Position numbers: made by a program. 64,000 nt of DNA from Escherichia coli (GTDB taxonomy: Bacteria > Pseudomonadota > Gammaproteobacteria > Enterobacterales > Enterobacteriaceae): assembly GCF_045037415.1 (NCBI RefSeq), contig NZ_CP173440.1; one strand, given 5' to 3'. Positions 24,001 to 33,000 of this stretch are shown here, one piece after another; within the stretch, counting starts at the first letter, position 1; each line of letters starts with the position of its first letter.

Positions 24001-27000
24001 GGCGCAGCCCGGCAGGCGTCACTACATCCCAAAAGCGGATGGAAAACAACGCCCGCTCGGCATCGCCTCGCTGGAGGACAAGATCGTCCAGTATGCGCTG
24101 GTGAAAATCCTGAACGCAGTCTATGAAAACGACTTTATGGGGTTCTCATACGGGTTCAGACCCGGGCGAAGCCAGCACGATGCACTGGACGCACTGGCCA
24201 CAGGGCTGGTACGCACTAACGTAAACTGGGTACTGGATGCCGACATCAGTCAGTTCTTCGACAGGGTGAGCCACGAATGGCTGATCAGGTTCACAGAGCA
24301 TCGGATCGGCGACCGGAGGGTAATCAGGCTCATACGTAAGTGGCTCACAGCCGGGACGTCGGAGGAGGGTCAATGGCGAGCAACGGAGGAAGGCACCCCA
24401 CAGGGTGCGGTCATCTCACCGCTGCTGGCAAACATATACCTCCACTACGTCTTCGATCTGTGGGCGCATCAGTGGCGACGTCGCTATGCCACAGGCAATG
24501 TGGTAATGGTCAGATACGCCGATGACATCGTCATCGGGTTCGACAAACGATACGATGCCCGGCGCTTCCGTATAGCCATGCAGCGCAAACTGAGGGAGTT
24601 CGGACTCACGGTTCACCCGGAGAAAACCCGTCTGATGGAGTTCGGCCGCTTCGCTGCCGAAAACCGTGCCATCAGGGGAAAAGGCAAACCAGAAACGTTC
24701 AACTTCCTCGGGTTCACGCACATCAGCGGGAAAGATCGCAACGGCAGGTTCATGCTGATACGAAAGACCCGCCGGGATCGGATGACGGCAACTCTGAAAG
24801 CCATCAAAGACGGTCTGCGAAGGCGCTGGCATTACTCAATCCCCGAACAGGGAAAATGGCTCAGGAGAGTGGTTCAGGGATACCTGAACTATCACTCGGT
24901 ACCGGGCAACTTCCCCACCATGCAGAAGTTCAGGACACACGTAACAAACCTCTGGCGCCGGGCGCTCAGGCGCAGGAGCCAGAAGGATGATACGACCTGG
25001 ACGAAAGCAAACAAACTGGCAGCCGCATGGCTACCAAGGGTTCGGGTTCTTCATCCATGGCCTGTGGAGCGGTTCACCGCCAGACACCCGAGGCAGGAGC
25101 CCGGTGCGTAAATCGCGCACGCCGGGATCTGTGCGGGGGGTATCCGGTAACGGGTATCCCTACCGCGACATCAGTGAAAAGACATGAGATCTTCCCATGA
25201 CAGATAAAACCAAACTGGTTGCTATCTCACGAACCGATGACATAAGTGCTCTGGATGCACTCAAGCTGTTGCGGTTTCGCCGGTACAATACGGCCAGAAG
25301 TCAGTTAAGGGTCACGAGTGTCTGGTCTGCATGGTGCGCCAGGCACGGTCTGACCCCCTTCCCGGTCACAGCGGTTGATGTCGAGCGCTATATTAATGGG
25401 CTGAATGGATCCGTTAAAATGGCGACTATCTCTCATTTTATTGCATGCCTTTCAAGCGTTAACAGCAGCCTGGGTTTTCCAGACTTCCGCAACGTTCTGA
25501 TAAAAGCACTGGTTCAGGTATGGCGGGCGCGGGAGAATGAGAAAAAAATCGTCACCGGTCAGGCCCTTCCATTTCTTATATCCGATCTCAATATTCTTCG
25601 CCGGTCGCTGCATAAAAGCGACGACCTGAGAGACATACGGGACCTTGCAATGATATGGGTTGGGTTTGAAACCCTGCTGCGTAACGTGGAAATTCGAAGG
25701 ATTAAAACCGGCGACCTGAAATGGCAAAATGACACGTCCTGTTACCTTCTGGATGTCATGCGGACCAAGACAAGCCTTTCAAGTAACCTGACATTTCAGC
25801 TCTCACCACAATGCAGTCAGCATGTCAGACGGTTGATTGAGACGGTGGAATACACCGATACCGAAACCTTCGGGCACCGTTTTCTTTTTCAGCCTGTAAA
25901 CATCCATACGAACCGATATTTCCCGTCCACCAGCAGTAAGCTATCCCGGGGTAAATCCATAGACAGGATGCTGGTCAAAGCAGGATTCAGTGAGGGGTTA
26001 CTGACGCAGTTACAGAATGAATCAAAGGTATCACGGGAAGATGTTGGAATGCTGTCCTCTAATTCACTGAACCAGGCATTTGCACGCCTCTGGGGGATTG
26101 CCGGGAAGGTCAGCGACAGTAACCGACAGTCCGGGCGGTACCGGACATGGACAGGACACAGTGTGCGTGTGGGGGGAGCCATAGAGCTGTTTAAGGCCGG
26201 GTACTCACTGGAAAAGATTACCGAGATGGGGAACTGGTCTGATCCAAAGATGGTCTTCCGTTATATCCGTGGATATCTTGCCAGTGAAAAAGCCATGGTA
26301 AGCTTTATGCGTAATCATCTGGACGACATATAGATTTTACTGAGAGAAACGCCAGCACTCAGCAACATGTTTCTGAGCGCTGGTCACTTATGAACTTTTC
26401 AGATATTCAGTTCTTTCAAATCTGTCACAACAAAATCCCCTTTTCCTGAAAGACTGTCAAAATCATCGAGTGTAAATTCATGGGTGTGATACCAAATGAC
26501 CCTGCATGTGGGGCAGGTAACAGGTAACAAATCTTCCGCTAACTTTTCGCTGTTATGGATAACCTCACCCATCTCGTTATGTTCGACAATATAACCACTT
26601 ATGCAAAGGGTTTCGTACCCATGAGCACCGGTAACAATATGGGTTGCTGTTCTCTCACGAATTTCCCCATTAATTTTAATCTGCTCTCGAGTGGTAATCG
26701 TTCTTTTATTATTCATGAAAACTCCGGATGATATTTAAAAACGGCTGACATTGCTCCCTGCTTCGGAATAATTGTGAAGGCAGCCAGGAAACCTGAAAAT
26801 ATGTTACCCTGTGCCTGAATCAGTTCTGGTGCGTCTCACGAATGAAAATGAGAGGCGATATCATGGATTATCCTTTTTGAGCAGCTTTTTCTTCTTTTCT
26901 TTGTTTTTTTAATCTCCGTTTTGCCCGGAAATTTGCAACGGTATAGAGAGTGACAGATGCAATGAAATTCACCAGTGCAGCAAACTCTACTGCCAGATTG

Positions 27001-30000: not shown

Positions 30001-33000
30001 CCCTGCTTACGAACCATCTCTTTAACGCACTCAAAACGTCGGGCTGTTGCCGGGTCGATGACAAATGTATTTAGATGCACATCTTCGCATACGCCAGACG
30101 TCTCATTTAGTTTCATGTTCACTCTCCAGATCAGGGATGAAGTCAAAGTTGTACGCAATCGCTTTTTCAGGTGATTCACCCGCGATGAGTTTTAACCAGG
30201 AGTAAGAGTCTTGCTGGTTAAGAAAAATAACGAGATACCCTTCATCTGCACTGTTTCGCTGTTTAATGAATTCAATCTCATTATCCATTACGAAACCAAA
30301 TGGCCCATGTATAACACGCGACTGCTCTGGAAGCATTGAGCTGAACATTGATACCACGACTTCCCTCAGCTCCAAATTTTGGTGCGCAATAAAAGCCACT
30401 CTTTTACCTTCCTTAACGGAAGCTACAATTCGTTTAACACTCGACTTCACGTTATAGCGATACACAATCAACCGGAGCCGGGTCATGCAGAGGAAAATAA
30501 TACATACGCAACTGACAAGAGCCCCATAAGCTGAGCCTTCAATGAACCAGTTAAGGAATCCCAAAACAACCAGTCCCAAAAAAGTGAATATACTCAACAG
30601 GAAAATATAAAAGTTAATTTTACGGTCTTTTGGATACCAGGTTGATGCAACGGCTATGATAGCCATTACGCCGACTAATGCATACATTGAAAGATCAAAC
30701 GGGTTACTCATCGATAGTCTCGCAATCGTGCCCAGGGCAGCCCTTGACAGGTGAAAATTCAGGGCATTCTTGAGTAGTTATAAGTCGCTCACCGGCGTTA
30801 AAACGTATTTGTAAGTCACTACGTAAAGCTTCTGCATTCTCCCCCCCCAAAAGGTAGAGCAGAAACTCATCATCAGCCAAAAGTAACTTTTCCAGGTCAT
30901 AGCACTCGTGTTTGTAGTCCATCATTCCTCCTTGAGACTATTAAATCACAGAGGAAAGACAAATTTTCTGTACTAAAGGGCTAAATCTGGAAGATCAAGT
31001 AAATTTTTTGGCAAAAAAAAAGCGCATAAAATATGCGCTCTTTTTTTAATAGACAACAATGGGTAATTAGTTCATACGGAGCATATGGTTCTCAACTCTT
31101 GCTATGAAGTTACTCATTGAGGGAAGGTTTAACTCGTCTCCTATGCGTTTACAGTCAAAAAGTGACTTTGCAGGGGAAAAGTTAAAGCCTTTATTATTAA
31201 CAAACTCTAAAATCTCTTTCAGATAGGAGTTTTTACTTCCGGCACTGAAGGAGTTGAGTAAAGGCCCACGATCTAAAAGTTCACCTGCTGCTTTTTTGGT
31301 CAACTTAATACCTTGTTTACTTATCATCTTACAATGATAGTACTCAAAGCTTTCACTACCTTCCCAGTCTAGAACCTGGAGGAGTGAAACTCAGAAAGCA
31401 AAAGCAACATTGTGCCATGATCACGAACAACATATAAAAATTCAAAATTACCATTTATCAACGCTTGCTTAACTAAGCGCAAATCTATCTCTATGTCGTA
31501 GTCATACCAGGGGCTATTAACGAGAGAAGCGGAATGCTTCAGAATGAAGTGTTCCTTAACCCAGTTAAAAACCGATTCGATATCATAATCATAATAAACG
31601 TTCATAATTAGCTCTCCTAAAGTAAAAAAGGGAGAGCCCCACAGGGAGCACTCTCCCTGTATGGGTTATGAAATTATTTAATCAAGTCAAAAAATCTTTC
31701 TTCCAGTTTGCCTGGGAAAGCTTCATGACCCTTGAGCATTAATACATCATTCCAATCGACACCTTTCGCACCATCAGGTATATCCAGTTCAGGCAAATGA
31801 ATCTCAACCCGGACTGTTGCTTCAGGATAGCGTTCAGCAAGTAAGGGCTCCATACGGCTCTTGAGAACACGTGCAGCAGACTCACCAGCTGAATTACCGG
31901 TGTTTGGATTTACCCGATCTTTATCTGCCCAAATCGACAATTCAATAAATTGGCAATCAGAAGGTGGCATTAAATACTCAGGTATTTCCAGCATTTCCAT
32001 AAATGTTGAACTTGAAGATGCCCAGCAAGGAATTGAAGTCGCCTCAGTTACTGATAGCGCATTCTCAATACCTTCACTAACCCCCAAAAACCATGATTTA
32101 GTTTCATCACAGTAAGTTGGTTTAAATAACTGCATCGAACCACCATTCATCTGGTAGACCGGTTTCATCATTAACTTTGGGTTTTCAACATCAGCTTTTT
32201 TAAGTCCATCATCAGTAAGATGAGTTTTATGGATAGTGCAATTGCGACCGAATTTATCGTTAAAAATAGCAACCATCGTTGGATGAAAACTGGCTGGCTT
32301 ATTAGAACCGGGCCAGTATCTCATCTTAGCATTAAACCCCAGACTAGCTGGAATTTTTGTGAGCATCCGTTTTATACCGCGCCCTGATAGATATCGAGCA
32401 ACCAATGAATCGGGTGTCACAAATTTTGTGTATTTATACACGGCTTCTAACTTATTTATACGACTAAGTCTCTCTTCCTCACCAATATCTGAAAAAGATT
32501 GAGCTTTTTTGTCATAAAGAACAATATTAACACGGTCGGCTTCAGTTAACTTTCTATCCTTGGAAACACCAAGCATTTCAAGAATGTTTTTTGCAGCCTG
32601 CGTTTTACTAATGCTTTTTAGTTCAGCAATTAAATCAATGCCATCAATAAAAGTATTATGGGGATAATCCTCATGAATAGCATGAACACTTTCTAGCGTC
32701 CTATCTTTAAATCTGAATTTCGTTTTGCCACTACCAGTAAACGGGCATTTGACAGAACGTGGAGCTTTTTCTAAAGCCTCCTGAAACTCAGGATAGTACG
32801 TTAATACATTACGCCATCCACCCAGCTGCTGCACATGAGATTTGACAAGGTCAAAAGTTTCTTGAGCGTACTGCATAGGGGTTTTAGCCGGTGAATTATA
32901 ATTTGTAGAATGACTCATAATACTCTCCTAGCTGACATTGTGGGTTTCACAATGCCTACTGCAATGCAGATAACATTGAGAAACCCACAACGCAGAATGA

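Follow-up and report, generated by a model that had tools for sequence, protein, structure and literature searches.

A divergent Tus homologue in a conserved nine-gene operon of the IncHI1B plasmid backbone

Organization and conservation of the operon

A 64,000-nucleotide (nt) stretch of Escherichia coli contig NZ_CP173440.1 (assembly GCF_045037415.1), hereafter termed the window, contains on its minus strand an operon of nine genes, which follow one another in the order I-H-G-F-E-D-C-B-A from position 30925 to position 26399. The largest of them, gene D, codes for a member of the Tus/Ter family. Every open reading frame (ORF) listed for this region in an earlier note on the same DNA was found on the minus strand at identical coordinates, and the RefSeq annotation contains the same ORFs as the ORF calls made on the window.

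Gene I (30704–30925), the first of the operon, is preceded by an AGGAGG ribosome-binding site and encodes an acidic protein of 73 amino acids (aa; pI 4.3) with four cysteines. It is followed by H (30103–30711; 202 aa), G (29874–30116), which has a coding sequence of 243 nt in RefSeq and encodes an acidic protein of 80 aa with recovered orthologues, F (29362–29826; a soluble protein of 154 aa without known domain) and E (28945–29352; a basic protein of 135 aa). Gene D, or tus (27943–28902; 319 aa), is succeeded by C (27188–27946; a basic protein of 252 aa), whose start codon overlaps the tus stop codon in the sequence ATGA, by B (26868–27191; 107 aa), the product of which has three transmembrane (TM) segments and a Lys/Arg-rich tail, and by A (26399–26716; 105 aa, three cysteines), the last gene before the terminator.

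Overlaps of 8 nt (I/H), 14 nt (H/G) and 4 nt (D/C and C/B) alternate with gaps of 47 nt (G–F), 9 nt (F–E), 42 nt (E–D) and 151 nt (B–A). The 4-bp overlaps D/C and C/B had been described correctly in the earlier note, while its short gaps of 10–43 bp need correction, the actual distances being 9 and 42 nt. Since G overlaps H by 14 nt, I and H overlap by 8 nt, and G is separated from F by 47 nt, the genes at 30103–30925, previously regarded as a separate second cluster, belong to the same operon; the linking gene G had been missed.

On the minus strand, an intrinsic terminator consisting of a hairpin and a U-run (31013–31046; –18.4 kcal/mol) ends the upstream gene J and thereby sets the 5' boundary of the operon; the hairpin is 100% conserved in plasmid p13190-1. 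The operon promoter must be located within 30926–31012. An 11-bp GC-rich hairpin on the minus strand (26352–26383; –19.5 kcal/mol), which separates gene A from a recombinase gene convergent with it, probably represents the 3' end. Inside the operon, terminator-like matches were not in excess (8, as compared to 5.4 expected from shuffled sequence). Judged by the overlaps and the flanking terminators, the nine genes probably form one translationally coupled, co-transcribed unit which includes small membrane proteins, as had been proposed.

Conservation as a unit had been set beforehand as a test of this proposal. The block I-H-G-F-E-(X)-tus-C-B, followed by a convergent gene for a Cre-like recombinase and then by hha, recurs in at least seven plasmid lineages, where X denotes an optional DUF2913-like gene of about 200 codons between E and tus, and where the position of B is held, in conserved order, by a basic membrane protein of about 105 aa. 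The loci compared were those of the IncHI1 plasmid pHCM1 (R27-type; L002), the IncHI2 plasmid 1205p1 (L003), p13190-1 (L006; 80% nt identity) and Klebsiella grimontii (L016), together with the public assembly and metagenomic contigs L009, L013/L014 and L015; P0016/L004 and P0065, which are frameshifted, low-quality sequences, were excluded. By BLASTP and iterated hidden Markov model searches, each of the window proteins C to I recovered a positional orthologue with 20–40% identity, and in six other lineages the positional orthologues of I to C show 20–30% identity with the gene order kept. Orthologues of gene I, for instance, were found in L002, L003, L006, L009, L012 (a locus without tus, see below), L013 and L015. 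The RefSeq annotation and the recovery, in unchanged order, of positional orthologues for seven of the genes (C to I) indicate that the genes are real, and not chance ORFs. A scan of contigs with the Tus alignment added a single locus, that of K. grimontii (85% identity), and no broader sample.

The corresponding block of the IncHI1 plasmids R27 and pHCM1 (R0182–R019x) has the same gene order and gene sizes, and orthologues of C, D, E, F, G, H and I are present in pHCM1. However, identities are only 21–42%, an extra ORF of 91 aa precedes tus, and gene A is absent; moreover, the adjacent replicon of R27 is RepFIA-like, whereas that of the window is of the RepB/42-bp-repeat type.

The 4.7-kb operon region is 100% identical to the corresponding part of pKpvST147B_virulence (NZ_CP040726), a plasmid of Klebsiella pneumoniae. 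Matches were obtained with 1319 plasmid records, nearly all from Klebsiella and typed as IncFIB/IncHI1B, MOBH and MPF_F; a search of a phage collection with the same region gave no match. The operon belongs to the backbone portion, of IncHI1B type, of a hybrid virulence/resistance plasmid of K. pneumoniae.

The Tus homologue and the proteins encoded with it

The gene D protein matches the Pfam family Ter (PF05472) with an E value of 7.5e-23 from model position 10 to 293 of 296, so that its homology to the Tus fold covers nearly the full length. In the earlier note, no motif could be assigned to any of the genes, and all were regarded as uncharacterised. For gene D this view fails on grounds which the note itself had named, i.e., homology to a characterised housekeeping protein; the other eight proteins are indeed without a family match. 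Scores with the NCBI models did not reach the equivalog threshold, the level at which the same function can be assumed (NF002810, 74.5 bits, cutoff 323; TIGR02648, 38 bits, cutoff 178). When the single sequence of gene D was compared with the PDB by phmmer, no match was obtained; the E. coli Tus structure 1ECR was reached only by a profile built from three IncHI Tus proteins (E=3.2e-11). In the alignment with E. coli Tus (22% identity), the residues corresponding to K89, R139, H144, P148, F170 and W172 are invariant. The Tus proteins of the other plasmid lineages are likewise only 20–27% identical to that of the window. Judging from these alignments, gene D codes for a bona fide, very divergent Tus-family protein. 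The Tus homologue as such has been annotated before, and its existence is known in outline.

The E. coli Tus–Ter system (PDB 1ECR/2I06; PF05472) belongs to the same family over nearly the whole length of the protein and shares the residues of the DNA-binding core. In contrast to E. coli tus, which is monocistronic and carries TerB in its promoter, the plasmid tus gene lies inside a nine-gene operon together with genes of membrane proteins. Plasmid-borne, “mobile” tus genes have been documented, chromosomal tus has been proposed to be domesticated from plasmids, and an origin-proximal tus was noted on chromosome II of Pseudoalteromonas (Galli et al. 2019, PMC6549158). The window gene is likewise a plasmid-borne PF05472 member near an origin and falls outside the three “resident” chromosomal clades, but that study appears not to cover the operon around such genes, the proteins acting with Tus or Ter sites on plasmids. 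A literature search retrieved no study of the action of a plasmid Tus, the DNA it binds or its partners, and no relevant study of IncHI Tus.

Hydropathy analysis, supplemented by an AlphaFold model for H, identified H, E and B as membrane proteins, i.e., three instead of the two small membrane proteins counted previously. H, the best-conserved non-Tus protein of the unit, is predicted to consist of three N-terminal TM helices and a cytoplasmic four-stranded alpha/beta domain; the model had no informative structural neighbour. Protein E contains two hydrophobic, TM-like segments which are slightly below the hydropathy cut-off and which are called as TM in the HI1 and HI2 orthologues. At the position of gene B, the HI1 and HI2 plasmids code for a basic TM protein of 105 aa without detectable sequence similarity to B. 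Gene A is confined to IncHI1B/HI5-like lineages. Since the first ATG of gene F is absent in the 80% identical p13190-1, its true start may be a downstream ATG.

Protein C combines an N-terminal RNase H-like fold, with the expected beta-beta-beta-alpha-beta-alpha-beta arrangement, and a C-terminal alpha/beta domain. At the beta1 position, where the DEDD set has its canonical catalytic Asp, the sequence is I-(S/L)-T without a conserved Asp; in the sequence-level comparison, conserved acidic residues include a Glu in helix alpha1 (AEL, E56) and the pair E50/D51. The sequence families of the unit are narrow: C has only 32 cluster representatives among 1.84 billion proteins, and word-indexed searches with C and F returned close relatives only, mostly from Klebsiella.

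Scanning all nine proteins against Pfam, NCBIfam, PHROGs and PADLOC identified Tus only, besides the neighbouring primase; genes A, B, E, F, G and I had no match in these collections.

A dispersed palindrome and the plasmid surroundings

The sequence AAAGTWACTTT, in extended form (A/G)AAAGTWACTTT(T/C), occurs in 17 exact copies in the window, as compared to 0.10 expected (about 170-fold over-representation). All copies are located within the IncHI backbone between 22.2 and 61.2 kb, at a density of about one per 2.5 kb, and none occurs in the non-IncHI first 22 kb. They start at 22212, 28183, 30880, 33984, 35381, 40116, 40900, 41218, 47670, 51687, 53160, 54503, 56218, 58459, 59550, 59774 and 61155 (end, 61165). 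Four copies are intergenic and 13 are intragenic, in all three frames, and the palindrome is also found throughout the tra genes. The copy at 30880–30890 belongs to the 5' end of the operon, 35 nt inside gene I, and is conserved in p13190-1 and in the K. grimontii locus. Beyond the window, the palindrome was detected in L001–L003, L005, L006, L008, L009 and L013–L017, and all sampled lineages of the IncHI-like type share it. The hypothesis that it is present only where tus is present, suggested by its absence (0 copies) from the Tus-less loci L010 and L012, was rejected upon detection of three copies in the tra genes of L017.

Another copy (28183–28193) lies within the tus ORF, at nt 710–720, where it encodes the residues ESNF. 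Every Tus-positive lineage examined has one copy inside tus, in three independent positions and reading frames: it corresponds to the codons for KVTF in HI1, HI2, L013 and L015, for ESNF in the window and in p13190-1, and for SKVTF in L009. The required codons AAA GTW ACT TT are kept in all four lineages of the KVTF group, while only 10 of the 79 degenerate tus codons with an invariant amino acid are identical in all four. Set against this background, the retention of the KVTF codons points to selection acting on the palindrome DNA itself within tus. The joint chance of the palindrome-in-tus pattern is roughly 0.004, a post hoc estimate based on local site densities.

A search of the literature for the palindrome sequence retrieved no mention of it in this context. 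KorB operators (OB), defined by the 13-bp palindrome TTTAGCSGCTAAA, are dispersed over IncP-1 plasmids. Both OB and the extended AAAGTWACTTT element are 13-bp perfect palindromes whose central base is degenerate, and both have at least a dozen backbone copies, within genes and between them. However, the two sequences differ, and the likeness is one of architecture.

The operon is located between a tyrosine recombinase gene and a primase-like (toprim) gene, in agreement with the recombinase and the replication-like module named in the earlier note. To its left are the gene of the Cre-like tyrosine recombinase (25197–26333, plus strand), which is convergent with the operon and a conserved neighbour, and then hha, an ORF of 355 aa, an array of 42-bp repeats and the gene of a RepB-family initiator (19376–20260), about 6 kb from the operon. 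The array comprises at least 25 (about 25–31) tandem repeats directly after the initiator gene (20312–21619), and p13190-1 has the same replicon arrangement near its operon. To the right, the toprim/primase-like gene is followed by VWA, DUF3150 and AAA genes, a helicase gene, and Tra genes (TraN, TrhU, TrbC and an Ig-like protein).

The 42-bp array is unusually long and iteron-like, and is overlapped by two long ORFs, one on each strand, which are probably spurious; inverted copies related to its repeats are present at 19210–19256. A group II intron with reverse transcriptase (RT)/maturase gene (about 23260–25173; Rfam RF02005 at 23294–23519, RT/maturase ORF at 23624–25111) is inserted into the short intergenic region between hha and the recombinase gene, and is absent from the otherwise identical NZ_CP040726 as well as from p13190-1. 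Upstream of the operon, a gene of 179 codons (31067–31606, minus strand) is split into ORFs of 78 and 86 aa by a 1-nt deletion around 31385 relative to NZ_CP040726 (GGTTCTAGA versus GGTCTCTAGA), and is either a pseudogene or affected by a sequencing error. In the VWA gene (33331–35295), a 9-nt tandem repeat at 34206–34574 results in a long acidic run, (D/G)SD(D/G)SD. Two tandem copies of an IS200/IS605-type insertion sequence (IS) with TnpB, about 84–100% identical and about 1975 bp apart, occupy 42932–46402. Perfect 825-bp inverted repeats (3949–4773 and 10842–11666) flank a 6-kb segment of the accessory part with 56–61% GC, which resembles a composite transposon bounded by IS elements.

Sites of the E. 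coli Ter type were sought with the patterns GTTGTAAC and, allowing up to 2 mismatches, GNRNGTTGTAAYKA. One candidate (42839–42852, TGATGTTGTAACGG) was rejected: its 10-mer ATGTTGTAAC at 42841–42850, which is intergenic and upstream of the helicase gene, matches the Ter core, but G6 and A19 are missing and the count is at chance level.

A proposed role in replication termination and competing explanations

With moderate confidence, we regard the operon as a conserved backbone unit of the IncHI family (MOBH, MPF_F) for plasmid replication termination and maintenance. The plasmid Tus would bind one or more plasmid-specific Ter-like sites and block DnaB-driven forks originating from the iteron replicon or replicons of the plasmid, i.e., from the RepB-family initiator and the 42-bp array. 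In R27, too, a replicon is close by, the RepFIA-like R0179 being about 3 kb away from hha and tus (PMC4853401). Such a block would fix the end of replication and prevent over-replication, rolling-circle run-on and multimer formation, and the adjoining Cre-like recombinase would resolve those multimers that still form. C, H, E, B, F, G and I would act as accessory proteins that are not Tus-specific, possibly in a membrane-associated complex. Host Tus plays a comparable role at the Ter sites of R1 and R6K. R6K and R1/R100 possess the DNA sites only and use the chromosomal Tus of the host; the proposed role is the same, namely to stop one fork near the origin and to prevent run-on replication and multimers, whereas the IncHI plasmids code for a highly divergent Tus of their own and have no Ter sites recognisable as those of the host.

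Several observations weigh against this interpretation. In the window as well as in the IncHI1 and IncHI2 loci, the frequency of E. coli-type Ter cores (GTTGTAAC, GNRNGTTGTAAYKA) is that expected by chance; no cognate asymmetric Ter was found on the replicon or near tus, and footprinting against the 80% identical p13190-1, which covered the E–tus and B–A gaps, disclosed no conserved non-coding island beside tus. A plasmid-specific Ter may have a different sequence. The C6 “lock” pocket of E. coli Tus, formed by I79, F140, H144 and G149, is needed for polar arrest. In the lineage of the window and p13190-1, F140 is replaced by Ser and G149 by Trp, I79 corresponds to Val, and H144 is kept; F, H and G of the lock are retained in the HI1 and HI2 Tus proteins. 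In the IncHI2 plasmid examined, tus is not adjacent to a replicon. C-like proteins occur in many bacteria without a known link to Tus. The lineage L012/L017 keeps I-H-G-F-E-C beside TraN and toprim without tus there: an unrelated ORF of 88 aa takes its place (L012, 7768–8034; L017, 16320–16586), and B, the recombinase gene and hha are also missing at the operon position, where siderophore/non-ribosomal peptide synthetase genes are found instead. Since six genes are thus kept without tus, the non-Tus genes are not strictly Tus-dependent; a tblastn search of PLSDB with the C orthologue of this lineage found no close plasmid of the same lineage. Finally, in R27, R0182 is hha, R0183 a “put. cre protein” and R0186 Tus-like, with R0184 and R0185 between them, and upstream ORFs are included in the deletion “Del17” (PMC4853401). 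Neither deletion of R0183–R0186, single or combined, nor Del17 affected the stability of R27 in E. coli MG1655; the plasmid was destabilised only by loss of the adjacent incC repeats (Tassinari et al. 2016, PMC4853401). These deletions were scored for stability and not for copy number or multimers, and the MG1655 host has its own tus.

The same R27 deletions were not scored for transfer, which leaves room for a different, rather unlikely role of the operon in conjugation or establishment. I-H-G-F-E-C(-B) would then be a membrane complex of MOBH elements that acts during or just after transfer, with Tus as a lineage-specific addition, stopping, e.g., replacement or complementary-strand synthesis at a defined place. 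The operon indeed lies in one block with the toprim/primase-like gene, the AAA/DUF3150/VWA genes, the helicase gene and the Tra genes, the Tus-less lineage retains the other six genes beside TraN and toprim, C-like two-domain proteins are widespread in Proteobacteria, and further copies of the palindrome present in gene I and in tus are spread over the tra genes. However, Pfam and NCBIfam searches revealed no type IV secretion system, relaxosome or entry-exclusion family match for any of the proteins, and the constant neighbours, the recombinase gene and hha, are maintenance and regulation genes rather than tra genes. The entry-exclusion proteins EexA/EexB of R27 are encoded in the Tra2 region, which differs from the location of the operon.

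The palindrome suggests yet another function of Tus, which we consider improbable: instead of being a polar fork trap, Tus could bind AAAGTWACTTT and thereby mark the DNA, form roadblocks or act as a regulator over the whole plasmid. The copy within its own gene would provide for autoregulation in a manner similar to TerB beside E. coli tus. The confinement of the 17 copies to the backbone, the copy in tus of all Tus-positive lineages with its kept KVTF codons, and the presence within the motif of GTAACT, the centre of the E. coli Ter core, are in line with such a role. Yet the motif is a perfect palindrome, whereas Tus binds asymmetric sites as a monomer; the motif stays the same between lineages with only 20–25% identity among their Tus proteins, suggesting a better-conserved binder, and the Tus-less L017 has its three copies in the tra region. 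Fork arrest at a site every 2.5 kb or so would, moreover, be a severe obstacle. It likewise appears improbable that Tus has been recruited in IncHI plasmids into a membrane-associated multi-protein system, together with the RNase H-fold protein C and the small membrane proteins H, E and B, in which Tus would recognise AAAGTWACTTT all over the backbone in place of a few polar Ter sites.

The earlier note had considered the operon a candidate toxin, exclusion or defence system, and a toxin–antitoxin, exclusion or anti-phage system with small membrane effectors would accommodate the three small membrane proteins, the several proteins without assigned family and the tight translational coupling. 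This explanation is very improbable. None of the nine proteins has a significant match to a defence, toxin, antitoxin or phage family. In PADLOC-DB v2, the eight non-Tus proteins gave zero matches, and the Tus protein gave weak partial matches only (best, LmuB, E=4.6e-4), which are low-scoring and fall into a helical, coiled-coil-like segment of a protein that is clearly Tus. Type II toxin–antitoxin or addiction modules comprise two genes with recognisable toxin and antitoxin folds, and their disruption entails plasmid loss or toxicity, whereas the operon has nine genes without a match to these families. It is part of the invariant backbone of IncHI1, HI2, HI1B and HI5-like plasmids, not of a variable hotspot, and the R27 deletions were readily obtained and left viable, stable plasmids, which argues against an addiction module (PMC4853401).

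The locus need therefore no longer be counted among the candidates for toxin or defence systems. To our knowledge, no description exists so far of the conserved partner set of Tus, of its RNase H-fold member, of the absence of Ter sites of the host type or of the palindrome within tus. If the palindrome-recognising system discussed above did exist, it could represent an ancestral form that gave rise, by domestication, to the fork traps of chromosomes. IncHI1B and other IncHI plasmids rank among the main vehicles of carbapenemase, mcr and hypervirulence genes, and their backbones are mostly annotated as “hypothetical”. With a conserved set of Tus partners and a concrete candidate DNA element defined, the question of what the plasmid Tus does becomes directly testable.

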